Numbered from the stretch's first letter, positions 14,856-51,802 are shown. The stretch: DNA of 64,000 bases from an uncultured delta proteobacterium (GCA_963804165.1 CAWDPO010000034.1:99689-163688); one strand, 5' to 3'. The notes: a model not told the origin generated them from the sequence alone. Numbers and translations are program-made.

Positions 14856-14940
14856 CGTTCAAAGGTTCAAGCGTTCAAAAGTTCAAGGAAAGATAAATGC
14901 GGGGAACTTCGATGTTTCGGAAATTCTCGAAACGTCGAAA
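14856..14940 (+). repeat. GTTCAA repeats + 32-bp palindrome
   Basis: Palindrome ttcgatgtttcg-gaaattct-cgaaacgtcgaa at 14908-14939. Confidence 0.85.
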
Positions 14941-15018
14941 GGAATACTAGCATTTCGGGGCCAGGAAACGCTTCGGTCCCTGAGTGCTCGATTACGTGGT
15001 GACATCCAACCACCAGAG

Positions 15019-15175
15019 AGTTCAAATCGTTCAAGCCGGTCAATTGGTTCGACCGTTCGAGAAGCCTCACGGCAGGCTTCCTCGACGGCCTTCAGTTCCG
15101 AGCCCGTCGAGGAATCATCATGACCGGCCCGATCTTCCGCTCATTCCTTCGATAAAGCTCAGGACGGGCTCTGAG
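15019..15175 (+). repeat. nested REP-like element, left part of the IS110 target
   Basis: Near-identical to 34810-34974 and to the reverse complement of 42085-42220; continues at 16606-16623. Confidence 0.85.
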
Positions 15176-16605
15176 ACTTGTATGAGGGATGTCGAGCTAT
15201 ACCGCGAGTGCTCCGTGATAGTACAGTGGCCGAAACTTATCGACCGTTGGACCAGGGAGGCACTACGATGGGAATCGAAACTTTCATCGCTCGCGATTAC
15301 GATGTGTTTGGCGGACTCGATGTGGACAAGAAAAGCATTTCGGTGACCTTTACCGATCATCAGGGATCTGTGAAGTCGATGCGCATGCCGTACAATGTCG
15401 AGTATCTTGTAAACCATGTTCGTAAGCACTATGGCGATAAGAAAGTAGCCTTTGCCTATGAGGCGGGACCGACGGGCTATGGACTGTATGACGGGTTGGT
15501 CGCTCAACGGTACCCTTGCTTGATCGCCTCTCCATCGATGATCCCCAAAGCGCCAGGACAGCGAGTGAAGACCAATCGGCTCGACAGCGTGGGATTGGCA
15601 GAGAATCTGCGCGCCGGACAGCTCAAGAGCATTCATGTGCCCACAACCTTGTATCGAGAGCTGCGTCACTTGACTCAACTGCGCGACGCTCTGGTCAGCG
15701 AGGTGGTGGCGATGAAGCAACGCATCAAATCGCTGTTGCTGATGGAAGGGCTGGAGTTTCCCCCGGCTCCGGCCGGCAGCCAGTGGTCGTTTTTGGTCAA
15801 AGCCAAGCTGAGAAAGCTTCCCTGCTCTTCGGTGGTGCGCTTTAAGCTCGATCAGTTGCTGGACAATCTGGAGTTTGGGGAGAAGCAAGTCCTTAAGGTC
15901 ACCCGTGAGATTCGCCGCTTTTGCCACAACGACCCGGAACTGTCTCGGTGTATCGAGTATCTGAAAACGCTTCCTGGGATCGGCTGGATCGTGGCCAGCC
16001 AGATGATGGCCCGTATCGGGGACTGGCGCCAGATCAATAACATTCGTGAGCTGCCGGCCTTTGTGGGGTTGGTACCCACCGAGAGCTCCACCGGAGAGAG
16101 AACCACTCGCGGCTCGATTACTCACAGCGGAGATCCAAGACTGCGCAGCAAACTCATTCAAGCCTCTTGGTCGGCGATCCGCCAGGACGGCGAGTTGAGA
16201 GAGTTCTTCCGCACCGTGGCGAAAAAACATCCGCGTCATCTCGGTCCTCGAGTGGCCATTGTGGCGGTGGCCCATAAACTGTGTGTGCGGGCCGCGGTGG
16301 TGTTGATGCAACAAAGACCTTACGAAGTGAGAGAAAAAGTTCAATCGGCTCCTTTGACCCAAGAGGAGACTGTGCCCCAGGGAACGACTCGACGACGGCC
16401 AGTACCAGGAGAACAAGACTCCTGAAGGTTCGACCCTTGAGACAGAGATCCCGGGGCTTAGTGCCAAAGAGGGCGCATCGCAAGTCAGTGTGACGGCCCA
16501 GTGCCGTGCCACGTATAGCAGCGAGTCTCTCTTGGGTGGGTAGGGAGAAAAAGTCATAGGAGAATTTAAGAGCCTTTGCGAGTTATTGACTTGACATCCA
16601 CATAG
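15176..16605 (+). mobile_element. IS110 family (IS1111-like) insertion sequence, copy 1
   Basis: Ends set by comparison with the empty site (ctctgag|cagc at 34974/34975); subterminal IR ggatgtcgag (15187-15196) / cttgacatcc (16590-16599); long 3' non-coding end. Confidence 0.9.
15268..16425 (+). CDS. IS110 family transposase (DEDD recombinase)
   Basis: GLDVDK, YEAGPTG, RVKTNRLD, LPGIG, GLVPTESSTG, VAVAHKL; RBS ggagg before MGIET. Confidence 0.95.
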   Translation: MGIETFIARDYDVFGGLDVDKKSISVTFTDHQGSVKSMRMPYNVEYLVNHVRKHYGDKKVAFAYEAGPTGYGLYDGLVAQRYPCLIASPSMIPKAPGQRVKTNRLDSVGLAENLRAGQLKSIHVPTTLYRELRHLTQLRDALVSEVVAMKQRIKSLLLMEGLEFPPAPAGSQWSFLVKAKLRKLPCSSVVRFKLDQLLDNLEFGEKQVLKVTREIRRFCHNDPELSRCIEYLKTLPGIGWIVASQMMARIGDWRQINNIRELPAFVGLVPTESSTGERTTRGSITHSGDPRLRSKLIQASWSAIRQDGELREFFRTVAKKHPRHLGPRVAIVAVAHKLCVRAAVVLMQQRPYEVREKVQSAPLTQEETVPQGTTRRRPVPGEQDS

Positions 16606-16742
16606 CAGCAGCGTCGTCGAAGGATGCGCTCCGTTCAAGACGTTGCAGAAGGAAGTCCGTATCTTCGTCTGAAGCGCTTGACATGAGCCTGGCGGACAAC
16701 TTAGGTTCCAGCGACGACGGCCCGATTACATGGAGGTGGCTC

Positions 16743-17780
16743 ATGACGAAAGCACGCGGTGTATTCTTGCTCCCTATCTTTGTCATATCGATATCGCTGG
16801 TCACGTCGGCGCTGGCTGCTTCGGTCGAGGACTTCTACAAGGGCAAAACCATCCAGTTCGTCGTCGGTGGCACCGCAGGTGGAGGCTACGATACGTACAC
16901 TCGGCTTATCGCGCGCCACTTCGCTCAATACGTTCCCGGCAAACCCTCCACTATCGTTCAGAATATGCCCGGAGCGGCCATGCTGATCGCGGCGAATTAC
17001 ACATTCAACAGCGCCCCGCGCGATGGAACGGTCATCGGGCATTGGTCCGGCCCGCTTATTCTTCAGCACCTGATGGGGAACCCTGCGGTGCAATTTGAGG
17101 GGCGCAAGTTTGGCTGGCTCGGTATGCCGACGGCGGATGCGCTTGTGTGCATACTGACCGATCGCAGCGGGATAAAAACGGCAGAGGAGTGGCGCAAGGC
17201 TAAAACACGGGTGAAGCTGGGGGCGATTGGCCCCGGCACCAGCGGAACTGACGATACCAAACTCCTTGCCGCCGCCACGGATTTTCCCCTGCAACTCATC
17301 GAGGGCTACAAGGGTACCGCGGACATCAGGGTTGCAGCGGAAACAGGGGAAGTCGACGGTACCTGCGCCTTTGGCTGGCAATCGGCGAAAGTGACTTGGG
17401 CCAACGCGGTGCGGGTCAAACAGGTTCATGTTGTGCTCCAGACAATGCTCGAGCCTCATCCCGAACTGAAGGGCGTCCCTCTCGCTGTCGATTACGCCAA
17501 GACGGAGGAAGGGAAGAAACTCCTCCGGATCGCCAGCGAGCTTTACGGCAAACAAAGACTCTATTCTCTTCCGCCACAAGTCCCCGAACAGCGCGTGCGA
17601 ACACTGCAGAAAGCTTTCATCAGTACCCTGAAAGATGCTCAGCTTCTGGCGGAGGCAGAAAAGGCGAAGCTCGAGATCGACCCGATCGATGGACCGGGCG
17701 TAGAAAAGATGGTGAACGGCTTGTATGAAATCGAGCCCGCCATCGTGAATCGAGTGAAACAGATACTCGAGTCAAAATAA
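16743..17780 (+). CDS. tripartite tricarboxylate transporter (Bug/TctC-like) substrate-binding protein
   Basis: FYKGKTI, GGGYDTYTRLIAR, VQNMPGA, GYKGTADIRVA. Confidence 0.9.
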   Translation: MTKARGVFLLPIFVISISLVTSALAASVEDFYKGKTIQFVVGGTAGGGYDTYTRLIARHFAQYVPGKPSTIVQNMPGAAMLIAANYTFNSAPRDGTVIGHWSGPLILQHLMGNPAVQFEGRKFGWLGMPTADALVCILTDRSGIKTAEEWRKAKTRVKLGAIGPGTSGTDDTKLLAAATDFPLQLIEGYKGTADIRVAAETGEVDGTCAFGWQSAKVTWANAVRVKQVHVVLQTMLEPHPELKGVPLAVDYAKTEEGKKLLRIASELYGKQRLYSLPPQVPEQRVRTLQKAFISTLKDAQLLAEAEKAKLEIDPIDGPGVEKMVNGLYEIEPAIVNRVKQILESK

Positions 17781-17787
17781 GTTAGTA

Positions 17788-17934
17788 CGTTCAAATAGTT
17801 CAAAACGTTCAACCGCGTATGCTCCGTTCAAGTCGTTGCGGCTAACGCAGGATTTAAAGTTCAAGGTTCAAAGTTCAAGGACAAGGATTCGGAAGGGAAA
17901 CTTCCATGTTTTTGGAATTCCGAAAAACGTCGAA
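17788..17934 (+). repeat. GTTCAA repeats + palindrome
   Basis: ttccatgtttttggaattccgaaaaacgtcgaa at 17902-17934. Confidence 0.85.
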
Positions 17935-18913
17935 GGGAATCCTAGTGAGTCTGCCGCTTAAGCAAATCAAAAAAGCGATCTCAAGGGTACTTTTCCGTTG
18001 AACGCGTGTCTGCGCATATGTTAATCCGCTTCGGGGGAAAGGGATGATCAGACTTTCTAATCTAGCCAATCTTGACAGTTTCTTATCACTCCCGTCAGAG
18101 GGCATACATCGCGAGGCGACCACGGCTGGAGAGTTAACCGGCAGATATTGCTCGAGACCGAATCCCCGGGCGGATAATGCTCCGCCCAAAGTTTTCTTAT
18201 CTCTAGAAGTTTTTCCCTATTAATGTCGGACAGCACCATCATTCGCCGAGTCCATTTAAAACTTTCGCCGCTTCACGCCAGCCCCCCTCGCGCTCTCCGC
18301 CTTCACCTGCTCGAACTCCTCTTTTCGAATTCCCGTGGCTATCAACGCTCTAGGGTGGCAATAACAATTGTTAGACGTGCTGGTTCAATCGTAGGTATCA
18401 GAGTCGAGAAATTACGATATACCTAGCGATCTCGATTGCTGTCTAATATTGGACCAAATTCAAAAGAAACTAACGGGCGCAGCAGTCGACGTATCCTGAG
18501 TCGTAACATGGAATCACTCGGCTCGTTAAAGTAGTGCCGTTTCATTTCAGTCTGCGAGGGCCGCAAGATACAAGATTTGTCCACAATATCTGTTGATAAG
18601 TTCTTGAAAACTCCCTTCTGTGGCGTGGCAAAGTGGGAATAGGCGCGTGTCTCAGCGAATTGCCTAAATTGTCCCCATAGAAAAGCGAGCGTAATTACCC
18701 TAAACGTCCTTTCTCGAGATTCCGCATCAAACGGTACTCCAAGCGAGGTTTGATCTTACGCCGCCTGCGAAAGCTGAATTGAGATCCTCGTCTCGCTCGG
18801 TGTTTTAGCTCATTCCCACACGGCCAGTCATTTCCCCTCACGCAACAGAAACGGGGTAATCTATGAAGCTCGGTTCAATATTAAATAGCAAATCGTGACT
18901 GGCGGATTTAGCA

Positions 18914-21229: not shown

Positions 21230-21411
21230 GGTTCAAAAGGCAAAGTTCAAAGGTTCGAGCTTTCTAGGCGAAGCCAGTTCCAAACGTTCTAGTCGTTTCA
21301 CCGCTTCGCTTCGTTCCGATCGTTTCAGACACAGGGTGGTTCAAGGTTCAAGAGTTCAAGGTCAGGTTGGAACGGGAACTCCCATGTTTCGGAAATTTCC
21401 GAAACGTCCAA
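21230..21411 (+). repeat. GTTCAA repeats + palindrome
   Basis: tcccatgtttcg-gaaatttc-cgaaacgtccaa at 21380-21411. Confidence 0.85.
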
Positions 21412-21752
21412 GCGTTCGAGGATGATGCTCGTCGGTGAAACGTTTAGTCTAAGAGACCAAGCGATGCCGTGAGCTAGGCGAAAATAGTTCATCGACGGGA
21501 TATGCCCGCGCATCAGTCTCACCCCAATCCCATCGACAGCGCCGCACCGGTTGAATAACGGCTTGTTAAGCCGAGATTGTTGCCGGGAGTGCGTAACAGG
21601 ACAGGCGGCTTTCTCGTTGAAAGGGCGCGCGGTCGCGTGTTAGAAGCATGCCTAAAGTATAACGGCCGTGGTCGTGAGTCGTCGCCTCGTAAGTCATGTG
21701 GGTCCCGCGCAGCGAAAAGAAAAGTAGCCTGTCGCCTTCGCGGAAGAAAACA

Positions 21753-22850: not shown

Positions 22851-23061
22851 GGTTCAATGTTCAATGTTCAAGGTTCAACGTTCAAAGTTTCGAAAACGAA
22901 GCGCGTTCAAAGCGTTCAAAACCAAGCCGGTTCCCGTCGTTTCACCGCTCGCCCCGTTCAAAACGTTCGAGTCCGCGGGCCGTTCAAACGTTCAAGGTTC
23001 AACGTTCAAGGGTAGATTCGGAAGGGGAGTTGCAAATTTTGAGAGCTCTCAAAACATTGAA
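22851..23061 (+). repeat. long GTTCAA repeat tract + variant palindrome
   Basis: About 12 GTTCAA units; ttgcaaattttgagagctctcaaaacattgaa at 23030-23061. Confidence 0.85.
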
Positions 23062-23102
23062 ATAGACGTTTGACGGCACGGCCGTTCAAAGCGGTAGACG
23101 TT

Positions 23103-25275: not shown

Positions 25276-25338
25276 CTACGCCTTCATCTCGATAAACTCA
25301 AGCGGCACCTCATTCGGTCCCTCCACGCCAACGGCGAT
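25276..25338 (-). pseudogene. 3' fragment of a gene (VOC-like C-terminus)
   Basis: Reads IAVGVEGPNEVPLEFIEMKA* and is cut directly by the GTTCAA repeat. Confidence 0.5.
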
Positions 25339-25417
25339 TCAAGGTTCAATAGTTCAAAAGTTCAACGGAAGATAATCCTGAGCAGTTCCACGTTTCGGGA
25401 ATTCTCGAAACGTCGAA
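25337..25417 (+). repeat. GTTCAA repeats + consensus palindrome
   Basis: ttccacgtttcg-ggaattct-cgaaacgtcgaa at 25386-25417. Confidence 0.9.
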
Positions 25418-25643
25418 CAGCCGCGATGATTTGCGGCCGAGGCCCATCGTCCACCTCGGATCGCGAGCTTGTGACTGGGCGAGGCGTTGCCACTTAAGCA
25501 AAGGATTCGTATTTGCGATATTTGGTTGTCGTTTCCCCGCCCGAACGCAAAAAACTCTATCGACAGAACCACCGTTCGATCGCTGGCGATTGACGACTCG
25601 CCGGCTTAGCGATAGGAGGAAGTAGATTAGCGAGAAAGGAGAA

Positions 25644-39131: not shown

Positions 39132-39134
39132 GAC

Positions 39135-40536: not shown

Positions 40537-40653
40537 ATTTCGACGTTTCGAGAATTCCCGAAAGGTGGAAGTTCCCCTCCGACTCTGTCCTTGGACCTTT
40601 GAACCTTGAACCAGCGCAAGTATTTGAACGAACCGAATCCTTCGACGACGCTG
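40537..40653 (-). repeat. palindrome + GTTCAA repeats + right part of the IS110 target
   Basis: ttcgacgtttcgagaattcccgaaaggtggaa at 40539-40570. Confidence 0.85.
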
Positions 40654-42084
40654 CTATGTGGATGTCAAGTCAATAACTCGCAAAGGCTCTTAAATTCTCC
40701 TATGACTTTTTCTCCCTACCCACCCAAGAGAGACTCGCTGCTATACGTGGCACGGCACTGGGCCGTCACACTGACTTGCGATGCGCCCTCTTTGGCACTA
40801 CGCCCCGGGATCTCTGTCTCATGGGTCGAACCTTCAGGAGGTCTTGTTCTCCTGGTACTGGCCGTCGTCGAGTCGTTCCCTGGGGCACAGTCTCCTCTTG
40901 GGTCAAAGGAGCCGATTGAACTTTTTCTCTCACTTCGTAAGGTCTTTGTTGCATCAACACCACCGCGGCCCGCACACACAGTTTATGGGCCACCGCCACA
41001 ATGGCCACTCGAGGACCGAGATGACGCGGATGTTTTTTCGCCACGGTGCGGAAGAACTCTCTCAACTCGCCGTCCTGGCGGATCGCCGACCAAGAGGCTT
41101 GAATGAGTTTGCTGCGCAGTCTTGGATCTCCGCTGTGAGTAATCGAGCCGCGAGTGGTTCTCTCTCCGGTGGAGCTCTCGGTGGGTACCAACCCCAGAAA
41201 GGCCGGCAGCTCACGAATGTTATTGATCTGGCGCCAGTCCCCAATACGGGCCATCATCTGGCTGGCCACGATCCAGCCGATCCCAGGAAGCGTTTTCAGA
41301 TACTCGATACACCGAGACAGTTCCGGGTCGTTGTGGCAAAAGCGGCGAATCTCACGGGTGACCTTAAGGACTTGCTTCTCCCCAAACTCCAGATTGTCCA
41401 GCAACTGATCGAGCTTAAAGCGCACCACCGAAGAGCAGGGAAGCTTTCTCAGCTTGGCTTTGACCAAAAACGACCACTGGCTGCCGGCCGGAGCCGGGGG
41501 AAACTCCAGCCCTTCCATCAGCAACAGCGATTTGATGCGTTGCTTCATCGCCACCACCTCGCTGACCAGAGCGTCGCGCAGTTGAGTCAAGTGACGCAGC
41601 TCTCGATACAAGGTTGTGGGCACATGAATGCTCTTGAGCTGTCCGGCGCGCAGATTCTCTGCCAATCCCACGCTGTCGAGCCGATTGGTCTTCACTCGCT
41701 GTCCTGGCGCTTTGGGGATCATCGATGGAGAGGCGATCAAGCAAGGGTACCGTTGAGCGACCAACCCGTCATACAGTCCATAGCCCGTCGGTCCCGCCTC
41801 ATAGGCAAAGGCTACTTTCTTATCGCCATAGTGCTTACGAACATGGTTTACAAGATACTCGACATTGTACGGCATGCGCATCGACTTCACAGATCCCTGA
41901 TGATCGGTAAAGGTCACCGAAATGCTTTTCTTGTCCACATCGAGTCCGCCAAACACATCGTAATCGCGAGCGATGAAAGTTTGGATTCCCATCGTAGTGC
42001 CTCCTTGGTCCAACGGTCGATAAGTTTCGGCCACTGTACTATCACGGAGCACTCGCGGTACAGCTCGACATCCCTCATACAAGT
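40654..42084 (-). mobile_element. IS110 family (IS1111-like) insertion sequence, copy 2
   Basis: Near-identical reverse complement of 15176-16605 with the same ctctgag|cagc junction. Confidence 0.9.
40766..41992 (-). CDS. IS110 family transposase
   Basis: Same as copy 1; a 1-nt indel near the 3' end extends the C-terminus. Confidence 0.95.
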   Translation of the reverse strand: MGIQTFIARDYDVFGGLDVDKKSISVTFTDHQGSVKSMRMPYNVEYLVNHVRKHYGDKKVAFAYEAGPTGYGLYDGLVAQRYPCLIASPSMIPKAPGQRVKTNRLDSVGLAENLRAGQLKSIHVPTTLYRELRHLTQLRDALVSEVVAMKQRIKSLLLMEGLEFPPAPAGSQWSFLVKAKLRKLPCSSVVRFKLDQLLDNLEFGEKQVLKVTREIRRFCHNDPELSRCIEYLKTLPGIGWIVASQMMARIGDWRQINNIRELPAFLGLVPTESSTGERTTRGSITHSGDPRLRSKLIQASWSAIRQDGELREFFRTVAKKHPRHLGPRVAIVAVAHKLCVRAAVVLMQQRPYEVREKVQSAPLTQEETVPQGTTRRRPVPGEQDLLKVRPMRQRSRGVVPKRAHRKSV

Positions 42085-42232
42085 CTCAGAGCCCGTCCTG
42101 AGTTTTATCGAAGGAATGAGCGGAAGATCGGGCCGGTCATGGTGATTCCTCGACAGGGCTCAGAACTGAAGGCCGTCGAGGAAGCCTGCCGTGAGGCTTC
42201 TCGAACGGTCGAACCATTGAACAGCTTGAACA
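42085..42232 (-). repeat. nested REP-like element, left part of the IS110 target
   Basis: Reverse complement of 15019-15175. Confidence 0.85.
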
Positions 42233-42297
42233 GGCTTCAGTATTAAAGTTGAACCGGTGTGGACCGGGGTGTATGCCAATTATTATTGGAGGAGAAT

Positions 42298-42720
42298 ATG
42301 GAAATCGCTGAAGCCCGAGAGTTTTTAAAGCACAATCATCATGGCATGCTGGTGGCGCGCAAGCGCGACGGGGCGCTGCAAATGACCCTGGTCTCGCCGG
42401 TCGTCGGCGCCGACGGCAGCGTGACGATCACGGCGCGCGACAACACCTACAAGGTCAAGAACATCCGGCGCGATCCGCGCGTCTCCCTGCTGGTCTACGG
42501 CGAGCAATTCCGCGGCTCCAACTACATTCAGATCGACGGCAAGGCCGAAGTCATCGCCCATCCGCAGGCCATGGATATCGTGCTCGACTGGCATCGCCAG
42601 ATCCGTGGCGAGCCCGCGAGCTGGGACGAGATCCGTAAAAAGACCCTCGCCGAAGGGCGCATCGCGATCCGCGTCACCATCGAAAAGGTCGGTCCTCAAA
42701 ACCGCACGCACGGAAGCTAA
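42298..42720 (+). CDS. PPOX class F420-dependent oxidoreductase-like protein
   Basis: KVKNIRRDPRVSL, IQIDGKAEV. Confidence 0.85.
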   Translation: MEIAEAREFLKHNHHGMLVARKRDGALQMTLVSPVVGADGSVTITARDNTYKVKNIRRDPRVSLLVYGEQFRGSNYIQIDGKAEVIAHPQAMDIVLDWHRQIRGEPASWDEIRKKTLAEGRIAIRVTIEKVGPQNRTHGS

Positions 42721-42786
42721 GCGCCGCGTTTCGCGCTGGCCAAAGATTTGTGTTTCTAAGGATGCCCATGGCGAAGTAGCTCCACA

Positions 42787-42872
42787 TTTTGACGTTTTGA
42801 GAATTGTCAAAACGTGCAAGTTCCCTCCTCGGAGTCTGTTCCTTGAACTTTTGAACCTTGAACTTTGAACCG
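42787..42872 (-). repeat. palindrome + GTTCAA repeats
   Basis: tttgacgttttgagaattgtcaaaacgtgcaa at 42788-42819. Confidence 0.85.
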
Positions 42873-43193
42873 GCGCTATCTCCAATTTGAATGTAGGCGT
42901 GAACGTGGTTTGACAAAACCGGGCGGGACGGGCCGATCCGTTGAGTGAGCTTCCAGACCTTACCCATGATAATTATTTTCAATATTGTCCACTATTAGAC
43001 ACTAATCTCCGCCGCGAATGGTTACTTTAACCGGTAAAGGCGAGAGCTGTAATGGCGCGCAAGAGGTAGAAGGTCCGTCAGCCTAACCAACATTGGGATG
43101 ACTTCCGCTCCAGTTCGGCAACGAACGTATTCCCGGTTCAGACCCCCTCTTCCAATATCCAAAGGCCCATGACGAGCCTGAAAAAGGAGAGTT

Positions 43194-43751
43194 ATGAATC
43201 CTCTATTTATAATCGCCGTTCCCCTGGGGTTGGTGATCCTGGGTATGATACTGAACAGCTTCGATCTCGGGTTCAATCAACCGCCGAGTTCGCCGGAGCA
43301 AGATGCGGTCAAGAAACTGACGGCGGAAAAGGAGTCTTACCGCAAGTTCTTCGATCTCCAGAGAAGCCGGTCGATAAAGCGCCAGCAACGGGCTGGTCAG
43401 TATGCCTGGTTGGTGATGGCGTCCTTCATCGGCGCCTTCATCTGGCTGTATGCGGATACGGTGAGCAAGACGAGCCTTTCGAGTCGAATTGCCGGGCTTC
43501 AGACATTGGCAACCGAAGAAGGCAAACAGATGGTTCTCTCGGTGACTCTAAGCGACGGGAACAATGTCAAGTACCTGATCAAACTGCCTCAGGCCGATAA
43601 GTTGCAGGTCGCCGTAACAGAACCCGCTGCCCCTGAAAAGGTCTCATCGTGGGAGATCGAAAGATTGGGCACGGCTCTCAGCACCGGCGACAATGCATTG
43701 CCGCTTGGCATCGCGCTGAAGATGTCCCAACTCGCCATCAATCCCAGTTAG
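43194..43751 (+). CDS. hypothetical membrane protein (paralog of 12678..13238)
   Basis: MNPLFIIAVPL, FFDLQR, GQYAWL, MVLSVTL shared. Confidence 0.75.
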   Translation: MNPLFIIAVPLGLVILGMILNSFDLGFNQPPSSPEQDAVKKLTAEKESYRKFFDLQRSRSIKRQQRAGQYAWLVMASFIGAFIWLYADTVSKTSLSSRIAGLQTLATEEGKQMVLSVTLSDGNNVKYLIKLPQADKLQVAVTEPAAPEKVSSWEIERLGTALSTGDNALPLGIALKMSQLAINPS

Positions 43752-43820
43752 ACGCGAGATTTAAAAGACCCAAATCAGACCTGAGGTGCCGGATCGGCGC
43801 CCCAGGCTGATTGGCGTCAT

Positions 43821-43885
43821 TTTGCCTTTTCGAGAATTGCCGAAACGTGGAAATTCCCCTCCGAATCAGTCTTTGAACGATTGAA
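43821..43885 (-). repeat. palindrome + GTTCAA repeats
   Basis: tttcgagaattgccgaaacgtggaaattcccctccgaatc. Confidence 0.8.
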
Positions 43886-43910
43886 TCACTGCGGGTCTCA
43901 TTCCCCGCAG

Positions 43911-44114
43911 CTAGTGTGGCGTCTCAGAAGTTCGTTTAAAAAGTCCAAACGATGGCAGCCACTGAAGTTGAACTCAAATCCCCCTTTGTCCCCTTTTTCA
44001 AAGGGGGAATTTTCTCCGTGCGATTCTCACCCCTCTTTGGCAAAGAGGGGAAGGGGAGATTTTCCGACGGAATGACGCGAGAATTATGTCGCGAACTTCT
44101 GAGACAGGACATAG
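43911..44114. mobile_element. MITE family B
   Basis: Nearly identical to 28695-28900. Confidence 0.85.
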
Positions 44115-44139
44115 CTAGCTGGGTAGAGAATAACTCCGA

Positions 44140-44285
44140 CTTCTTAATGTCTGTCATTCCCGAATGCTTCTATCGGGAATCCAGGCGAGACCGGAATTGG
44201 TCCCCCGATTAAAACATTCGGGGGGTGACGCCGTTGGGATAAATGCTCTTCACTTCTGATACCACGCAGCAAGCTGCGGGGGGAG
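44140..44285. repeat. composite REP/MITE-like element (family C)
   Basis: Reverse complement of 11011-11150. Confidence 0.75.
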
Positions 44286-44412
44286 TTCATCGATTGAACG
44301 TTTGAACTGACTTCCAGACCTTATTAAGGATAATTCTTTTCAATATTGTCCAATAGGAGACAGCAACCTCTGCCGGGCAAGATTACGTTGAGCGGACAAG
44401 GAGGACGAATCT

Positions 44413-44853
44413 ATGTTTACTGGAATTTGGAAAAACGTATTTGCAAGCGCGCTTTTCTTGACCCTGGCTGTGTCCGCTTGGGCGGCGGAGGAAAAGAAGG
44501 CGCCGCCGGCTAAAGCGGAGAAGATGGAGAAGATGGGGGAGATGGATAAGAAGCCGGAAATGGGAAAGATGACGACCGGCGGAAAAGACCACAAAGAGGT
44601 TCAAGAGGCTTTAAAGGCCAAGGGCAACGATCCCGGACCCATCGACGGCAAAATGGGTTCTAAAACCCGGGCCGCGCTCAAGGCATTTCAAGAGGCCAAC
44701 GGCTTGAAGGCGACCGGACAATTGGACAACCAGACAGCCGAGAAGCTCGGAATCGCCAAAACGGCCGCGCCCATGGGTAAGGAGATGAAGGACATGAAGA
44801 AAGAGAAGACGGAACCCATGAGCAAAGAACCGACGACCAAAGAAAAGAAGTAA
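44413..44853 (+). CDS. secreted peptidoglycan-binding domain protein
   Basis: Signal peptide; VQEALKAKG.DPGPIDGKMGSKTRAALKAFQ..NGLKATG. Confidence 0.88.
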   Translation: MFTGIWKNVFASALFLTLAVSAWAAEEKKAPPAKAEKMEKMGEMDKKPEMGKMTTGGKDHKEVQEALKAKGNDPGPIDGKMGSKTRAALKAFQEANGLKATGQLDNQTAEKLGIAKTAAPMGKEMKDMKKEKTEPMSKEPTTKEKK

Positions 44854-44875
44854 TCGCCCGTCCGTAAAAACAGCA

Positions 44876-44903
44876 GGAGGGGAGTCTTAAAGACTCCCCT
44901 TCT
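44876..44903 (+). terminator. possible terminator hairpin
   Basis: ggggagtctt-a-aagactcccc after the stop codon; weak U tract. Confidence 0.4.
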
Positions 44904-45019
44904 CACCCTTAAGACGGCATCTCCCAGCAGCAATCAAAAAGTCCTTCCGGCGTTCGACAATTCCACGCTGCTCGATAGTGAACGCGCCATCCGAGTAACA
45001 TTGAAAACATGCGCGCTTT

Positions 45020-45225
45020 CGTTCGAGAATTCCCGAAACGTGGAAGTTCTCCCTCCGCATCTCTGTCCTTGAACAATTGAACATTGAACTTTTGAACGAT
45101 CTCGGCTCTAAACGTTTTGAACGTAGCGCATCCTTCGACCAGCTGGACGAGCGGAAGATCGAGCCCGTCATGGTGAGCTTAGCCTGTCCTGAGGCAGCTC
45201 GAAGGATCGAACCATTGGAACGGGA
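45020..45225 (-). repeat. palindrome + GTTCAA repeats + simpler version of the IS110 target REP
   Basis: ttcgagaattcccgaaacgtggaa at 45022-45045; gagcggaagatcgagcccgtcatggtgagc. Confidence 0.8.
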
Positions 45226-45376
45226 CCGCTCCCCATGAAGTTCATCCCCAAGCGGCCAAGCCGAAACTTAAACCTTCTCTCTACTTGTCAATTCTGCTTT
45301 GTACTTCTTTGTGTCGGTCGTTGCTAGGCGGTAAAGTCGCTAAGTCGCGCGCGCGTTCATTTACCGAGGAGAACTC

Positions 45377-46663
45377 ATGAAAGCAACAACGGCAACGTCG
45401 CTGGGAAATATATCGCTCGCGGTCTCGATTGGGGGATTGATCGCCACCCAATTGGCATTACGTCATGGATGGGTTGCGGCTCCTGGCTGGAAGGTTCTTC
45501 TCCAAGCCTTTGAGGCGGCGACTGTCGGTGGGCTGGCGGACTGGTTCGCTGTGAGCGCGCTGTTTCGTGAGGTTCCCGTGCCGCTGATACGACGGCATAC
45601 GAATATTATCATCAAGAATCGCCAACGCATCGTCGATGGGATTGCCGACATGGTGCAGAACCGATGGCTCGCCCCCAACATCATTCGCGAGTACTTAGTG
45701 AATTTCTCGGCATCCCAATATGTTCTGGACTTACTGGGAAACGAGGATCATTTGGAAAAAGTTCTTGCTATGGTCCGAGACATCATCCAGCAATTTGCCC
45801 GCGGCATCGCCGCTCCGGAAGTCGCGGTGTTTCTTGAGCGCACGCTCAAAGACCAACTGCGGGATCTTAAGTTCGCCGAGCCCCTCGGACGCTGGTTGGG
45901 ACAGCGCATACGCAGCGGCGATCATCATCGCGCGTGGAATTCGCTTCTTCCGGTTATCGAAAAGGCGGTTCGGGGGCCTGAGGTGAAAGCGATCGTCCAA
46001 AGGACCATTGTGCGCTCGTTCGAAGCGTACAAGCACCGGGGACTTCTCAAGCGTCTTGCCGTCGACGTGGCGCGCGGGCTTAACATAGTGAATGAGGAAG
46101 CGATGGTTGCATCCTTCTTATCCAAAATGGCAGAGGTGCTCCGCGAGGCGCGATCTGATCCCGCCCATCCGCTCAGGGCTCGAATCGACGGCATCGTGCT
46201 TGAATTCGCAGATAAACTGGCGGTCGGCGACGCCGACGCGGTGTCGGTGATTGAGAAGCTGCAAGCGGCGCTCATCAACGGAACGGACGCACGCGAAATA
46301 CTCCAAAGCGCCCTGCGGCGGCTCAGTGATATCATCGAAAAGGAGTTTCAAAAGTCGTCCTCCGACTTTAATCATCTCATGCGCCGGACCTTTCACGATC
46401 GTCTCGATATTTTTCGCGCGGACACAGCGGCGCAAAAAAAAGTCGATCGCTGGGTGACAGGGGCGGCGCTCGAACTGATGGAGAAACGGCACGAGATGAT
46501 CGGTCAAATGGTTCGCGGCAGCCTTGAAAAACTGTCCGATCTCGATCTGGTGGGGCAGATTGAGGAGAAGGTCGGTCAGGATCTCCAGTACATTCGTCTC
46601 AACGGGGCCATCGTCGGCGGACTTGCCGGAGCGGTACTTGCGATCATGAAACTGTTCGCGTGA
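45377..46663 (+). CDS. DUF445 family membrane protein
   Basis: EAATVGGLADWFAVSALFR, HTNII, DLQYIRLNGAIVGG. Confidence 0.92.
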   Translation: MKATTATSLGNISLAVSIGGLIATQLALRHGWVAAPGWKVLLQAFEAATVGGLADWFAVSALFREVPVPLIRRHTNIIIKNRQRIVDGIADMVQNRWLAPNIIREYLVNFSASQYVLDLLGNEDHLEKVLAMVRDIIQQFARGIAAPEVAVFLERTLKDQLRDLKFAEPLGRWLGQRIRSGDHHRAWNSLLPVIEKAVRGPEVKAIVQRTIVRSFEAYKHRGLLKRLAVDVARGLNIVNEEAMVASFLSKMAEVLREARSDPAHPLRARIDGIVLEFADKLAVGDADAVSVIEKLQAALINGTDAREILQSALRRLSDIIEKEFQKSSSDFNHLMRRTFHDRLDIFRADTAAQKKVDRWVTGAALELMEKRHEMIGQMVRGSLEKLSDLDLVGQIEEKVGQDLQYIRLNGAIVGGLAGAVLAIMKLFA

Positions 46664-47148
46664 ATTAATTTTCTGTCCACGCGATCCTATGACATAGCGG
46701 AACCATGATTCCGAAATCCGTAAACCTTGCATCGGGCTTCGAAGGATGTCCTCTACGTCAGCCCGAAGCGATCCCAGAAGGCCGCCGAGACCGAATTTCT
46801 GAAGGACCAGGGCATCCTCCTCGGATACAAAGGAAAAGAATCGTTTTGGATGCTTCGAAGCCCCACCACCTTAATTTCCGGAAACTCACATTATGAACTC
46901 ACAGAAAAGTTATAAGTTTATGCGCAAGCATTATTTGAATCGTGAGCAATTTTGATACTCTGGTATTGTATTGGTACAAGGCTAGGTAAATTGATCTACA
47001 AAATTGTCGTCCACGGTGGAGTAAGCTGTAAAAAGCGGTGGAAATTGCAAAGGTAAAAGATTTGACTCTAGAAACTCTTTTCTTTCTGGTTCTGAACTGT
47101 CCTCACCAGTCCAGGCAATGCCGGCGGCTAGGGCAGCGGACTTGAACT

Positions 47149-47844
47149 ATGCGCCACAACTCCATGACATCGACTCGTGCGGGTCGCGCTGTTTTAGCCA
47201 TTGCCTGCGCCGTGGTTGCCAGCGCGTGGGCGGCCGATCGCGTCGTCGTCGAGGACTGGCGCTCCTATCCGCTCGGTACGCGGGGCATCCCGCGCGACTG
47301 GAAGGAGCAGACCTGGGGAAAGCCCGCCTACGATCTCGATATCGTTTCGGACAACGGGCAGCCGGTCCTGCACCTTAGGAGCAAGGGTGACAACTCTACG
47401 ATCAGTCGCGACCTCAAAGCTTTGGTCGATCTCAACGAGACGCCAATCCTCGAGTGGAGATGGAAGGTCATTACGCTTCCCACCGGCGGCAATGCCTGCC
47501 AGAAGGCGACCGACGACGAGGCCGCGCAGGTTTACGTCGCCTGGCTGCGCACGCCGGAGGCGGTGCGCTCGCGCATCATCGGCTACGTTTGGGATTCGAC
47601 GGCACCGGCTGGCACGATCTGCAAGAGCCAGAAGACCTCCACGGTGACTTATGTCGTCCTGCGCTCGGGCTCCGACGAACTCGGCAAATGGCTCACCGAG
47701 CGCCGCAATGTCGTCGAAGACTTCCGTAAGATCTATGGTGAGGCGCCGGACAAACCTACCGCCCTCTCGGTCGCGATCGATTCGGACGATACGCGCTCCA
47801 GCGCCGAGTCGTTCATCGGACCGACTGTCTTCACGCGGCCTTGA
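47149..47844 (+). CDS. DUF3047 domain protein
   Basis: TPILEWRWKV, DDEAAQVYV, IGYVWD, ERRNVVEDF, DSDDT. Confidence 0.85.
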   Translation: MRHNSMTSTRAGRAVLAIACAVVASAWAADRVVVEDWRSYPLGTRGIPRDWKEQTWGKPAYDLDIVSDNGQPVLHLRSKGDNSTISRDLKALVDLNETPILEWRWKVITLPTGGNACQKATDDEAAQVYVAWLRTPEAVRSRIIGYVWDSTAPAGTICKSQKTSTVTYVVLRSGSDELGKWLTERRNVVEDFRKIYGEAPDKPTALSVAIDSDDTRSSAESFIGPTVFTRP

Positions 47845-47971
47845 CGAGCGCAATGAGGCGTTGCCAGCTGTCGCAAGTTGCGCCACGCCACACGGGCACG
47901 CAAAATCTGTCGTCAACTGGGAATCGCTAATCCAAAGTAGACCCGTCTAGAACCCAACACTCCCGGTTTTT

Positions 47972-48082
47972 ATTTCGACGTTTCGAGAATTCCCGAAACA
48001 AGGAATTTTCTCCTCTTTGGTTTTAATTCCTCGAACGTTTGGAACGATTGGAACCGGCTTTGGTGTTTAACGGCTTGAACGG
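47972..48082 (-). repeat. palindrome + GTTCAA repeats
   Basis: ttcgacgtttcgagaattcccgaaacaaggaa at 47974-48005. Confidence 0.85.
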
Positions 48083-48108
48083 GCCACAGTGTTGATGCAG
48101 AAACCCGC

Positions 48109-48654
48109 CTACCCCGAGCCTTTTGGGGGTGGCCTGCCTTGGGGACCGATGCGCTGGGGAACGCCACCGGGACCCATGGGGACCGGGGCCTGCTTGCCAA
48201 ACCCGGCCGGACCGATAGGAGTCCACCCGTCTTGTCCCGCACTCGGAATAGGCTTTGGGTTGGTGGTGGCCGGAGGCGGCGAGGCCTTGGCTGCGCCGGA
48301 GGTTCGGGTGCCCGAGACCTTAACGCCGGTGGAACTGGTGCCGCTGAGTTGCGCGCCATCGGCGGATAAGCGGACTGTATCGACAAACCCATTCTGCCAG
48401 GTCACGGTATAGGTTTCGCTGCGCGGATCGCAGGTCCAGGTTGCCGACGCGGGCGGAGTCCCCGCAGTGCCGGGTGTCCATTTAGCTAGAGCGTTTTGTG
48501 AGAAGCTAACTTTCCCACCGATGAACCAGCCCCATTCTCCCACTATCCTCTGGCAAGAATCCGCCGCCTCCGAATGAGAGGCCAGGATCTGGCAAAACAG
48601 GATGCTTGCGACGCCTAGAGCAATTGCTACACGGTAGACGGCCCGAGAGAACAT
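48109..48654 (-). CDS. hypothetical secreted protein with Pro-rich C-terminus
   Basis: Signal peptide from MFSRAVY; RBS ggagg. Confidence 0.6.
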   Translation of the reverse strand: MFSRAVYRVAIALGVASILFCQILASHSEAADSCQRIVGEWGWFIGGKVSFSQNALAKWTPGTAGTPPASATWTCDPRSETYTVTWQNGFVDTVRLSADGAQLSGTSSTGVKVSGTRTSGAAKASPPPATTNPKPIPSAGQDGWTPIGPAGFGKQAPVPMGPGGVPQRIGPQGRPPPKGSG

Positions 48655-48903
48655 GCGACCTCCTGCAATCATCAATCTTGTAACGAACCCCGTATAATAA
48701 AAGGTCCCAGTTTTGGCGAACAGTATCCAATAAGGTAGTCTCATGTCCAGCGCAATCGTTTCATTGACAAATAGGCGGCGTGATGTGCTGCAGCGTTTCA
48801 CTCGCAGCAGGAATAATTTTGAGAAGCATTAACGTCTTTTAGCCGATGCCTGGAGTGTGTATGATAACTCGGGCCGCACGCCAAAGTTATTGGAAAGATC
48901 GCA

Positions 48904-49062
48904 ATGAAACGAAAAGCCAAACTTCAAACCAGCAAAGAATTTTCCGCCGCGGTCGGCCGGGCCCTGCGCCGCGCCGCCAAGACCGCCCGTAAGACCGCGC
49001 GCATGCACGGCACGCCGATCTACGTCTGGAAAAACGGCAAAGTGGTCGCCGAAAAACCGTGA
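48904..49062 (+). CDS. small basic protein (52 aa)
   Basis: Manual translation MKRKAKLQTSKEFSAAVGRALRRAAKTARKTARMHGTPIYVWKNGKVVAEKP; below ORF-track cutoff. Confidence 0.6.
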   Translation: MKRKAKLQTSKEFSAAVGRALRRAAKTARKTARMHGTPIYVWKNGKVVAEKP

Positions 49063-49232
49063 CCCTCTTTTCTTGAACCTTGAACTCCCCGGCATAAGGT
49101 CTCGCAGCGCTGGAACAGCTGGAGTTAATTGAAGGAACTACACGAGAGTGATCGTCTGAGCGTGCCGTAAAGGTATAAACCAATGAAAGCAAGGCGAAAT
49201 CGAAAAGATCTTGGCCGGTAGCAAGGGGTCGG

Positions 49233-49664
49233 ATGCGCATCATTGGAGTTCTTGTCGTCATAGTGATGCTTGTCGTCGCCTACTTCTGGGTGGTACTCAG
49301 ATGGAACTACTCCACCGGTGAGCGCGCCGGCTGGGTGCAGAAGCTTTCGAAGAAGGGCTGGCTGTGCAAGACCTGGGAAGGTGAGTTGGCGATGGTCTCA
49401 ATGCCGGGCGCCGCGCCGGAGAAGTTCTACTTCACTGTCTGGGACGACGCGGTCGCCGACGAGTTGAACAAGGTTATGGGCAAGCGCGTCTCCCTTCACT
49501 ATGAAGAAAAGGTCGGCTTGCCGACCTCCTGCTTCGGTGAGACGCGACACTACGTGAGCCGCGTAACCGCGGTGGAAGAGCCTCCGCTCGCTCCCGGCGT
49601 CGTCGTGCCGACGCCCGGCACCGGCACGGCGCCGGCAGGGCCGCCCGCCGCACCGCAGAAATAG
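49233..49664 (+). CDS. conserved hypothetical membrane-anchored protein
   Basis: YSTGERAG.VQKLSKKG..CKTWEGEL. Confidence 0.8.
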   Translation: MRIIGVLVVIVMLVVAYFWVVLRWNYSTGERAGWVQKLSKKGWLCKTWEGELAMVSMPGAAPEKFYFTVWDDAVADELNKVMGKRVSLHYEEKVGLPTSCFGETRHYVSRVTAVEEPPLAPGVVVPTPGTGTAPAGPPAAPQK

Positions 49665-49933
49665 CCGATGGCGGATACCCGACCACCGCAGGCTGCAAGC
49701 GGTTTCGCTCCAGCGATCCGAACAATCGTCACACCCCGACCGTAGGCGCTTCCGGACCAACGCGGCGTTTTGTCTTTGAACTGGTTCTCGATCATAAATT
49801 GAATGGCTTTCATCGACGGACGCAGAACCTTTTGCAGCGCCGTGTGTTTTGATGATGTCGCTCGCACGGAATCAGTGGTCTATGTGCGAGCCGTTCGAAG
49901 AAAGCCGCGAGGAACCAAGACGGAGAATATTTT

Positions 49934-50185
49934 ATGAAGACAGTAAACGCTCGTGACCTTCAGAAAAAAATCAAGGAATGTGTGGATTTGTCCCAACAGG
50001 ACCAGCTTGTCATCACGGGCCGTGGCAAACCAGCCGCCGTGATGGTTGGAGTAGACGGGAAAGACTGGGAGGACGTAGTGCTTCAGACCTCTTCAACGTT
50101 TTGGAAGTTTATCGAGGAGAGGAGGAAGGAGCCGACGATGTCGATCAAGGAGCTACGAATCCGACTGAAGAAGCGTAAGAAATAG
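49934..50185 (+). CDS. Phd/YefM family antitoxin (no adjacent toxin)
   Basis: MKTVNARDLQ, VITGRGKPAAVMV. Confidence 0.85.
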   Translation: MKTVNARDLQKKIKECVDLSQQDQLVITGRGKPAAVMVGVDGKDWEDVVLQTSSTFWKFIEERRKEPTMSIKELRIRLKKRKK

Positions 50186-50406
50186 ATCTCATTTTAGACA
50201 TTCTAGGGATTCTCAAACGGTGGAAGTTTCGCCGGCTCGGGTCAGCCCCGGATTTCCGAGCACGATCAGGGTAGTTCAATTCGACGACCGATTGCCGCTT
50301 CAGACAAAATCAAAAATGTTCTCTGATGCCAATTCGTTCATTGTCCCGGTCCCCTTCGTAGAACGGGGGTTTTTGTTAGCAAGAGAGTGCGAGCGGCTCA
50401 GCTGAC

Positions 50407-50772
50407 TTACTCTTCCACCTGCGTGGTCGTGCTCCCTTTCGCTGTTAGAGCAATGTGGGAGAATGAGGAATCAGGTGTTGCCCCATGCCAATGTTTCTCT
50501 TCCGCCGAGATATGCACGACATCTCCTATGGTGATGATCTCCTGATATGTTTCCGTAGCGATGATACCCTTGCCCGCAGTGACAAACAGCACCTGATCGC
50601 TGCTGTGGATGTGCATTTTGTTCCGCGCACCGGTACTGAAGTTGACGACGGCAAGATTAAAGTTATTGCTCGTCTCAGGCGTCAGCAGAGTTTGTCGCGT
50701 CACGGGATCACCCGTGAACAAGGGACTATTCGCTGATTCTGCGGGGATCTCGTCGGGTTTTAGTACCTTCAT
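50407..50772 (-). CDS. cupin domain protein
   Basis: HIHSSDQVLFVTAGKG, KHWHGA. Confidence 0.9.
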   Translation of the reverse strand: MKVLKPDEIPAESANSPLFTGDPVTRQTLLTPETSNNFNLAVVNFSTGARNKMHIHSSDQVLFVTAGKGIIATETYQEIITIGDVVHISAEEKHWHGATPDSSFSHIALTAKGSTTTQVEE

Positions 50773-50946
50773 TGAAGCATCCTCCTTCCAGCAGGCTCTA
50801 TCATGGCGCCGCGCAAAATCGCAATGTGAAAAGTAGCCTGTCCCCTTTAATCCACTCGGTGAAAAAAGAAACCGGCGAACTGAAAGGTATATTCGTTAGC
50901 ATCGTTAGGAACACAAAAGCCAAATCAAGAATTTCGAAATCTTAAA

Positions 50947-51030
50947 CTTATCCTTTATCCCTTTGCCTTTATCCTTTTCGAGCCGCTTGGCGGTTCTACT
51001 TATCCCTCATCCTTTTGCCCTTATCCTTTT
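50947..51030. repeat. ATCCTTT-type heptamer tandem repeats
   Basis: ttatcctttatccctttgcctttatcctttt...ttatccctcatccttttgcccttatccttt. Confidence 0.7.
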
Positions 51031-51166
51031 AAAATCGCTCTTGTCAGAAACCCGCCGAATCCAAGTAGGCTACGAAAACATTTCGGCCAACGGCAGTTGC
51101 GTGTAGAAAGAATTGAAGGAACTACATGAGAGTGATAATCTGAGCGTGCCTTCGAGGTGTCATCGA

Positions 51167-51373
51167 ATGAAAACAAGGCGAAATCGAAAAGATCCTGAAA
51201 TAGTGATGCGGGGAGGAAAGCCGACCGCCGTTATCTTAAGCATCGAAGAGTATCGAAAGCTGCTCGAACGAGTCGAGAATGCCGAAGACCTTAAGACGCT
51301 CAGGGCGATGAGGAAGCGACCGCTAAGGTTCCGCAAACTTGAAGACTTCCTAAAGGACTTCGCAGGTGTATGA
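51167..51373 (+). CDS. Phd/YefM-like antitoxin
   Basis: GKPTAVILSIEEY; overlaps the toxin start. Confidence 0.8.
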   Translation: MKTRRNRKDPEIVMRGGKPTAVILSIEEYRKLLERVENAEDLKTLRAMRKRPLRFRKLEDFLKDFAGV

Positions 51374-51620
51374 GGTTCTGATCGAACGGACGGCCGAGCA
51401 TGATCTAAAATCTCTCCCCACCAATATCTTTGATCGTATCGTTCCTCGTATTAAAGCCCTCGCCGATAATCCACGGCTAGCCGGATGCCATAAACTAGCC
51501 GGTTCCAAGAATGACTGGCGAATTCGGATCGGAGATTATCGAGTGCTCTCTGAAATCGATGATGCACGTAAACGCGTAAGAATCTTTCGCATCAGGCACC
51601 GCAGAGAAGTGCATCGCTAA
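51366..51620 (+). CDS. RelE/ParE family toxin
   Basis: LADNPR..GCHKL, WRIRIGDYRV, IRHRREV. Confidence 0.9.
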   Translation: MYEVLIERTAEHDLKSLPTNIFDRIVPRIKALADNPRLAGCHKLAGSKNDWRIRIGDYRVLSEIDDARKRVRIFRIRHRREVHR

Positions 51621-51679
51621 GGTGAGCTAGACTGAGCAGACGGCTCGGTGCTGCTGCGGCCGCCATTAGCCAGCGCTCG

Positions 51680-51802
51680 TTTCGACGTTTCGAGAATTCC
51701 CGAAACGTGGAAGTTCCCCTCCGACTCTGTCCTTGAACCCTTTGAACCTTGAACCGGCGTTAGGCTTTGAACGCAGCGAACCGATTGAACCATTTGAACG
51801 GA
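51680..51802 (-). repeat. consensus palindrome + GTTCAA repeats
   Basis: ttcgacgtttcgagaattcccgaaacgtggaa at 51681-51712. Confidence 0.9.

Follow-up and report, generated by a model that had tools for sequence, protein, structure and literature searches.

To our knowledge, integrons are the only well-understood system by which bacterial chromosomes store and reshuffle single-gene cassettes, the plasmid-borne pdif modules coming second. The attC sites of integrons are imperfect palindromes of 55-140 nt that end in RYYYAAC and GTTRRRY boxes, and pdif sites are 11-6-11 look-alikes of dif that alternate in orientation. Repetitive extragenic palindromes (REPs) and bacterial interspersed mosaic elements (BIMEs) are short imperfect palindromes located between genes, just after them, and go with REP-associated tyrosine transposases (RAYTs); the IS1111-attC group of IS110-family elements targets the attC of integrons. 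The subject of this work is P, a 32-nt palindrome that punctuates a cassette-like array in G000:C34:99689-163688, a stretch of 64,000 nt that was analysed as a whole and is called the window below. Integron cassette arrays, sedentary chromosomal integrons and clusters of attC sites lacking integron integrases (CALINs; PMC4889954, PMC5027507) serve as comparison systems. So do the pdif (Xer) modules of Acinetobacter plasmids (PMC7399989), which are bordered by recombinase-type sites and devoid of a recombinase of their own, a host enzyme in trans being assumed.

The window belongs to the draft genome G000 (7.5 Mb in 46 contigs, 56% G+C, 81% complete). Its source is taken to be a member of Binatia, an uncultured soil lineage, because the exact matches to the P core in public genomes lie almost all in records of metagenome-assembled genomes (MAGs) of Binatia or Deltaproteobacteria. 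A literature search limited to abstracts retrieved no published description of the P element.

The arrays punctuated by P resemble integrons in several respects: they consist of modules of one to three genes, are rich in toxin-antitoxin pairs and have one hairpin repeat per module at the 3' end of an open reading frame (ORF); this repeat is nearly identical within a lineage, and the modules recur, reordered, at a hypervariable fixed locus. They differ from integrons in having neither a nearby integrase nor RYYYAAC/GTTRRRY boxes, and P is a near-perfect palindrome of 32 nt whereas attC is imperfect and 55-140 nt long. Furthermore, classic attC arrays exist separately in these genomes and contain no P, many P cassettes apparently have a leader of their own, and in a part of the window genes face both ways. 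Like pdif modules, P modules are bounded by short sites and encode no recombinase. Unlike them, they form chromosomal arrays of tens of kb, in which sites of 12-8-12 geometry keep a direct orientation within each sub-array; P has no likeness to dif, judged by eye against the consensus, and here we agree with a first-pass annotation of the window that had seen no dif consensus. As in REPs and BIMEs, the palindrome lies just after genes, and the hairpins formed by the neighbouring GTTCAA runs fit this class well; P differs from it in being clustered, in having no flanking or co-occurring Y1 transposase gene and in sitting at homology breakpoints. The reading that we prefer, and hold tentatively as quite possible if a little less than probable, makes P the boundary of cassette-like modules and their probable recombination site, an analogue of attC that would be served by an enzyme acting in trans.

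The palindrome P and its units

The consensus of P is AC-TTCCACGTTTCG-RGAATTCY-CGAAACGTCGAA-ATG, the palindrome itself covering 32 nt in a 12-8-12 arrangement. Allowing at most three mismatches, it is matched five times in the window (at 14908, 25386, 40539, 47974 and 51681) and never in 100 shuffles; its core CGTTTCG-N8-CGAAACG, with at most two mismatches, is found nine times for 0.89 expected. The first-pass annotation had described about 14 copies of a site composed of a GTTCAA run, a spacer and the palindrome. A profile built from 13 units and then run over the whole of G000 bears this out: it places 14 units, full or nearly so, in 14852-51770, at the positions given in the annotation. 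The copies at 32675 and 45022 are present among them with damaged palindromes, one being broken and the other having lost most of one arm. As for the two copies that had been listed as degenerate, the one near 35058 keeps its run and spacer, and the one near 50193 is missed by the profile, is weakly palindromic and is not retained. The units lie on the + strand from 14.8 to 38 kb and on the - strand from 39.4 to 51.8 kb, with a switch near 39.3 kb on which the first-pass annotation does not comment, as follows:

14852-14944, + strand: unit 1, GTTCAA run, spacer and P at 14908-14939 with three mismatches
17846-17940, + strand: unit 2, run, spacer and, at 17902, a P variant with one additional base pair per arm
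21325-21415, + strand: unit 3, run, spacer and P at 21380 with six mismatches
22977-23065, + strand: unit 4, run, spacer and, at 23030, a P that is divergent yet palindromic
25329-25420, + strand: unit 5, run and P at 25386-25417, identical to the consensus
32618-32700, + strand: unit 6, run, spacer and a broken or truncated P at 32675
35004-35063, + strand: degenerate unit, run and spacer without P; a solo copy of repeat X (34811-34990) comes before it
37943-38030, + strand: unit 7, short run and P at 37996 with six mismatches, including one compensated pair
39387-39479, - strand: unit 8, the first reversed unit, P at 39393 with a 1-nt deletion
40533-40626, - strand: unit 9, P at 40539-40570 with one mismatch, abutting the second IS110-family copy (copy B)
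42783-42877, - strand: unit 10, a P2-type variant (GTTTTG/CAAAAC arms), 68 nt past the PNPOx gene
43815-43904, - strand: unit 11, P at 43821, between cassettes a and b, which are contiguous and unit-free in genome G018
45022-45099, - strand: unit 12, P without most of its distal arm, spacer and run, kept with cassette b in G018
47970-48064, - strand: unit 13, P at 47974-48005 with two mismatches, 130 nt past the DUF3047 gene
51676-51770, - strand: unit 14, P at 51681-51712, identical to the consensus, 61 nt past the ParE gene; its run extends to about 51800

Runs without P, in + orientation, are located at 39170-39226, just left of unit 8. An inversion between the two inverted IS110 copies was considered as the origin of the strand switch and discarded, as the units at 14908, 39393 and 40539 are at odds with it.

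P is clustered rather than evenly spread, which genome-wide mapping had been expected to decide: 24 of the 28 copies found in G000 with at most six mismatches lie within three clusters (C34:114596-151369, which is the array of the window, C2:252911-262918 and C12:23415-74174), and the 31 best profile matches of the 7.5-Mb genome are confined to three contigs. The reported absence of the hairpin from the first 12 kb of the window holds for P, which is not found between 1 and 14.8 kb; GTTCAA runs do occur there, two of them lying inside this core block (6905-6966 and 9729-9797). Tallies of P, and those of Y1 transposases given below, were made on 31 genomes of the genus, and those of the integron integrase IntI on 41 related genomes. 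The unpublished genome G005 has a row in all three tallies and no claim is made on it alone; one of its loci also enters the pooled counts of P (flank letters, pair comparisons and paired changes). With at most three mismatches, P was detected in 19 of the 31 genomes, for none with a reversed-pattern control. Other clusters are found in G018:C13:1.71-1.79 Mb, G015:C4:1.096-1.100 Mb, G043:C2:96-103 kb and G045:C60:11-14.5 kb, and in G047, where 13 of 21 distinct P sites are grouped within 22.5 kb (C2:1246529-1268997). The P core was also retrieved from 105 stretches of species-representative genomes, nearly all titled Binatia or Deltaproteobacteria MAG, and from at least 132 stretches of metagenome contigs; a search of viral contigs returned none. 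P is thus conserved across species and beyond the genus, and near letter for letter in those 19 genomes.

The sequence immediately before P is AAC, CAC, TAC or GAC at 107 of 153 sites and ATG follows it at 111 of 153, these AC and ATG flanks having been given a small weight when the sites were oriented. The arms are kept complementary by changes that come in pairs: at pair 11-22, 167 copies have C-G, 34 have T-A and 11 are intermediate; at pair 3-30, C-G is found 144 times and T-A 17 times; and at pair 12-21, 199 copies have G-C and 6 have C-G. The sites were gathered by their likeness to the consensus, which works against finding such double changes. At position 4-29, a C.C mismatch occurs in 153 of 218 copies. 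As DNA, P alone folds into a stem of 12-15 bp at -8 to -14 kcal/mol; the 150-nt unit, taken as a single long imperfect hairpin, folds no better than shuffled sequences (z -0.39). No run of T follows the P hairpin on either strand, and P is therefore not a standard intrinsic terminator. In G047, the T-A variant P2 stands beside P, 19-31 nt before it, at four places, which fits better with a folded strand than with a duplex operator for one dimeric protein. The recurrent C.C mismatch, like the paired changes, suggests that P may act as a folded single strand.

P lies close to the ends of genes. With open frames standing in for genes, 24 of 74 sites have, on the ATG side of P, an ORF of at least 70 codons whose stop is 7-35 nt away, compared with 5 of 74 on the other side, and the order in dense arrays, read in gene direction, is gene, P, leader repeats, next gene. 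This arrangement, with P directly after an ORF and a single cassette orientation, is seen in the right half of the window and in the dense array of G018, and not in the left half of the window. A role of P and its ATG as a translation start was rejected, the frames after ATG being short and unrelated and GGAGG missing in G047. The same holds for a promoter of extracytoplasmic function (ECF) sigma or sigma-70 type inside the unit, whose spacing misfits by eye and for which a promoter scan gave 8 matches for 6.3 expected. An Rfam search of the window gave no match, and neither did a scan for tRNA genes.

The GTTCAA runs turned out to be something else. Paired GTTCAA words (GTTCAANNGTTCAA, at most one mismatch) occur 23 times in the window for 0.38 expected, and 233 runs of at least three words, with a period of 7-9 nt, are found in G000, on most of its contigs. 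They mostly form intergenic inverted pairs, (GTTCAAN)n-loop-(NTTGAAC)n, that is, hairpins with stems of about 28 bp, and some stop a few bases upstream of GGAG and a start codon. In G047, no GTTCAA run accompanies P. These runs are an ordinary dispersed REP-like repeat of the genus, and the part of the earlier description that made them a component of a specific site is rejected, since they are dispersed in G000 and missing next to P in G047. Comparable runs occur between IntI and the first cassettes in G014 and G015.

Cargo shuffling and homology breaks at P

The genes considered here are ORFs named by Pfam searches on their translations. The accessory cargo reported in the first-pass annotation was recovered in this way, with a glyoxalase, two PhnB-like proteins, a split chromate transporter, PIN/Phd and ParE/RelB genes, a cupin, a PNPOx, DUF445 and DUF3047 proteins and a peptidoglycan-binding protein. 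Over all arrays, the cargo consists mostly of toxin-antitoxin pairs together with small accessory or uncharacterised genes. The locus is delimited by genes shared with related species:

3-12390: core left flank, an ABC transporter block collinear with genome G043
57236-58324, - strand: Exo_endo_phos gene of the right flank, common to the right flank of the G018 array (match 57246-58252)

In G043, an array of P units in - orientation begins directly after the same FtsX-type gene of the ABC block. Between the flanks, G000, G043 and G018 share scattered cassettes only, and these are reordered. Related species carry different or reordered cargo at the same locus.

The cassette interpretation of the first-pass annotation placed breakpoints at the site, and homology between copies does end at P. 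Among 153 distinct P sites, compared in 11,628 pairs, both flanks are alike in 2 pairs, the right flank only in 31 and the left only in 83; the right-flank figure is the informative one because left flanks are themselves repeats. That only 2 of the 11,628 pairs share both flanks argues against stable inherited insertions. In a larger set of 215 sites, 70 pairs are alike over 5-83 nt right of P; 27 of them are still alike about 100 nt further and only 5 across P. All these counts are descriptive, since the pairs depend on one another and related genomes have a common history.

The array of G047 provides a direct case. A stretch of 427 nt (relative positions 36241-36665) recurs 5 kb away (41326-41752) with 99% identity. 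The two copies are alike from 4 nt before one P to 4 nt past the next and unrelated beyond these points, and the sequences that border the second copy match those beside two other P sites of the same array. One exact P-to-P module has thus been copied into another context. Metagenomes point in the same direction: 21 sequencing runs each cover at most 0.11 of the window, and in the four runs compared, on assembled contigs only, the likeness of soil and sediment contigs to the window is lost at the edge of P (42785 and 51675-51680) in four cases out of four. In one soil contig of 1404 nt, the PNPOx cassette (42182-42733) and the cassette at 49213-49694 are joined and separated by 322 nt; in the window, they are 6.5 kb apart.

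Several apparent rearrangements were set aside. The "skips" between units seen in contigs of the runs, and a backward joint from 51808 to 42085 (seen in a single contig, whose shorter side has 31 letters), are cross-matches between repeats and give no evidence of circles. A comparison of positions 30000-35500 of the window with contig C24 was uninformative. Miniature inverted-repeat transposable elements have terminal inverted repeats and duplicate their target around a small non-coding insert; the one filled-versus-empty comparison available (43807-44333 of the window against G018, a single case) reveals no target-site duplication, and the insert contains other repeats. In the G047 array (L157/L158, G047:C2:1246001-1286000), each cassette has a non-coding module of about 300 nt before P, which contains a degenerate palindrome like P as well as (GATCGTG)n repeats. 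A stretch of this module, TTGTAA-N17-TAGAAT when read on the strand of the gene, resembles a sigma-70 promoter. A protein encoded by this repeat module (Y) was rejected, as its frames do not align.

A cassette model and its rivals

In the model proposed here, a cassette read in gene direction would comprise P, lineage-specific leader repeats (a spacer and (TTGAAC)n in the genus, the module of about 300 nt in G047), one to three genes and then the next P, tight against the last stop codon. Modules would be excised and re-inserted by recombination between P sites, as integron cassettes are via attC, through an enzyme encoded elsewhere in the genome and acting in trans. What stands of the recombination unit suggested by the first-pass annotation is a cassette-like, non-integron array; its GTTCAA part and its link to HUH enzymes do not. 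A more specific version, possible in our view and less probable than the general one, is an integrase-independent system of Binatia in which P modules, their strand marked by C.C, would be excised as circles and inserted again at another P by a trans-acting enzyme, be it a Xer homologue or some other housekeeping recombinase or a member of an unrecognised family; TA-rich arrays of 20-100 kb would thus form at a fixed locus, in parallel to and independently of the classical integrons of the same genomes.

Classical integrons do exist in this group, with IntI above the family cut-off in 9 of the 41 related genomes. The best IntI match in G000 reaches 105 bits for a TIGR02249 cut-off of 265, and none lies in the window. 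A decayed classical integron is located about 75 kb upstream of the window (G000:C34:24299-28368). It includes an IntI remnant (C34:24299-24415) that corresponds to the last 39 residues and is 79% identical to the IntI of G014, followed by classic attC sites at C34:25835, 27219, 27610 and 28309, with a fifth at 38769; one attC of G000 hardly differs from an attC next to the IntI of G018. A strict scan combining boxes and fold finds no attC in the window and detects the IntI-linked array of G014 and the five sites of C34. GTTAGGC or GCCTAAC occurs four times in the window and is never paired. A looser scan, with 29 matches for 36 and 44 in shuffles, was discarded. P itself has no paired R''/R' boxes and its flanks are not complementary. 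The window is therefore not a classical integron, having neither IntI nor attC, and the observation in the first-pass annotation that no integrase and no attC core are visible there is confirmed by the Pfam and TIGR02249 searches and the attC scan. The P system is not homologous to integrons.

Several observations weigh against the preferred reading of P as a recombination site. Cassettes a (42985-43806) and b (44334-45089), split in the window by a unit and other repeats, are contiguous and unit-free in G018; many genes of the left half of the window face the opposite way relative to P; shared cassettes often lose homology near the ends of ORFs and not at P; the pair counts involve repeated left flanks and non-independent pairs; and the remaining 8 P sites of G047 are scattered singles outside arrays. 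Polymorphisms at positions 13, 20 and 29 of P gave no signal for a crossover point, and no circular or excision junction was seen in assembled contigs, which cannot show rare forms. No recombinase travelling with P was found among the families tested (IntI, Phage_integrase, Resolvase, Y1 and Y2). IntI is absent from the 81% complete G000 assembly apart from the 39-residue remnant and from the P-bearing G045, no tyrosine recombinase is found on the 1.97-Mb contig that holds the G018 array, no serine recombinase in G000 and G043, and no Y2 transposase in G018. The 82 metagenome loci with P yield only three Y1 matches, one IS110 match and one serine recombinase match. Y1 homologues occur in 25 of the 31 genomes tallied, and G014, G004, G007 and G021, which have no P, are among these 25. 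The main rival explanation, which we consider somewhat unlikely, is that P is a passive repeat, a REP-like hairpin serving to terminate or stabilise transcripts and moving along with genes acquired horizontally; the mosaic would then result from RecA-type recombination or replacement after DNA uptake on 35-100 bp of identity, with no dedicated enzyme. It would account for the missing P-linked recombinase, for the position of P, which in dense arrays comes just past stop codons and in the same sense as most cargo genes, for the adjoining GTTCAA runs, which are an ordinary dispersed hairpin repeat, for the failure to localise crossovers within P and for the unit-free a-b junction of G018. However, P is clustered and not dispersed, is followed by no T run and so is not a standard intrinsic terminator, and keeps the sequence of its stem, beyond its structure, across genera; moreover, the 427-nt module copied 5 kb away would need either two exchanges within 32-40 bp or a circular intermediate.

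The other explanations appear less probable. That P would be an operator or an RNA-level regulatory element of island genes, bound by a dimeric regulator or an RNA-binding protein and with no role in DNA rearrangement, is improbable: the 12-8-12 geometry and the strong sequence conservation suit it, but in dense arrays P stands after genes and not before them, P and P2 coexist side by side, homology breaks at P, and promoter-like signal in 39000-52200 does not exceed that of shuffles. We find it very improbable that P is an unusual attC used in trans by the IntI of the genus, the arrays being CALIN-like offshoots. The presence of IntI in 9 of 41 relatives, its presence in the P-rich G012, G015, G018 and G047, the decayed integron on the contig of the window, and the integron-like cargo and position at ORF 3' ends all agree with such a use. 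Nevertheless, the IntI-adjacent arrays of G014, G015 and G018 use classic attC (GCCTAAC...GTTAGGC) and contain no P unit. The P arrays of G015, G018 and G047 are far from IntI, and in the five genomes where both were placed P never adjoins IntI, the nearest being 19 kb away (G005). G014 has two IntI and no P; G045 has eight P matches and no IntI; in the P-bearing G043, IntI is split. P also lacks R''/R' boxes, and its unit forms no long hairpin. Least probable of all is that P is a REP-type hairpin for an HUH enzyme (Y1, RAYT-like) or a subterminal hairpin of IS200/IS605-like cargo. Y1_Tnp genes do occur in or near arrays (30612-31436, 58751-59698 and 63049-63996 in the window, and relative positions 71015-71905 in G018), P is an imperfect hairpin with conserved short flanks, and P and P2 are sometimes in tandem. 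But the copies in which Y1 is fused to a DnaA C-terminal helix-turn-helix (58700-59710 and 62998-63996, 97-98% identical, with a third on C1) each lie between 29-nt inverted repeats (GGGGTCAGACTTC...) unrelated to P. The link to resident HUH enzymes made in the first-pass annotation is rejected because of these repeats and of the Y1 homologues of P-free genomes, and the co-occurrence of P with RAYTs that it anticipated does not appear, Y1 not tracking P across the 31 genomes. No Y1 match was obtained in the 60 kb around the G047 array, only 3 of the 82 metagenome P loci have one, and P is not dispersed as REPs are. The IS200/IS605 cargo known as palindrome-associated transposable elements (PATEs) has a different subterminal hairpin at each end and relies on a Y1 transposase somewhere in the genome. 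In comparison, two hairpin types, P and P2, exist, but most modules have one hairpin per border and the presence of Y1 does not follow that of P.

Two further candidates for the enzyme were discarded. Serine recombinases lie beside the G047 array, but none is found in G000 and G043. IS91-type rolling-circle elements target GTTC/CAAG, and their Y2 transposases are common in G000 but absent from the P-rich G018. On C5, C10, C18, C23 (two copies), C30 and C41, a tyrosine recombinase gene and a Y2 gene of IS91 type lie about 0.5-1 kb from each other, and these repeated pairs look like a multicopy composite element.

If P is indeed the recombination site of these modules, the arrays would represent a third kind of cassette architecture, built on a non-homologous site, in a soil lineage that is uncultured and common worldwide, and this would mean that cassette arrays evolved more than once. 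P would then also be a sequence tag for harvesting accessory genes of Binatia from metagenomes and would point to an unknown recombination activity. If P is passive, the arrays still show a short conserved hairpin structuring a hypervariable locus.

Other repeats and genes of the arrays

Two IS110-family copies lie beside units of the window:

15029-16638 (element proper 15171-16623), + strand: IS110-family copy, inserted in repeat X beside unit 1
40624-42231, - strand: second IS110 and X copy, 98.7% identical to the first and inverted, beside unit 9

The element proper is about 1453 bp long and has further copies on C15 and C6; the two copies of the window have the same insertion point in X. 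X is a structured repeat of about 190 nt, often located just upstream of a P unit, with solo copies at 34811-34990, three times on C12, and on C2. As in the IS1111-attC group, the two IS110 copies stand beside units at the same point of a structured repeat. Unlike in that group, their target in the window is X and not P, and they are passengers rather than the recombinase of the array. A 206-nt repeat resembling miniature inverted-repeat transposable elements (MITEs) is found at 28695-28900 and 43910-44115, with about 30 copies in the genome (80-99% identity).

The split chromate transporter consists of two adjacent, overlapping ORFs (36858-37412 and 37352-37939) with one Chromate_transp domain each and is read as a pair of short genes; C25 carries an 80% identical homologue. 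The cassette genes at 12678-13238 and 43194-43751, which have no Pfam match, are paralogues (73% alike); a copy at G000:C42:3-756 is 95% like 43041-43791. Cassettes a and b have in common an upstream stretch, TTTTCAAYATTGTCCA.... Near the right flank, an ORF of 406 residues without Pfam match (55795-57015) has two more copies, on C28 and C17, with 87-89% nucleotide identity, and the neighbouring PLD-like gene at 52180-53448 also recurs on C28. In the G018 array, the locus L042 (G018:C13:1770001-1790000) contains six ORFs of the four-helix-bundle family 23S_rRNA_IVP, each in its own cassette among ParE, MqsA/DUF4258 and ORF6N cassettes, and in addition a fragment of a group II intron maturase.

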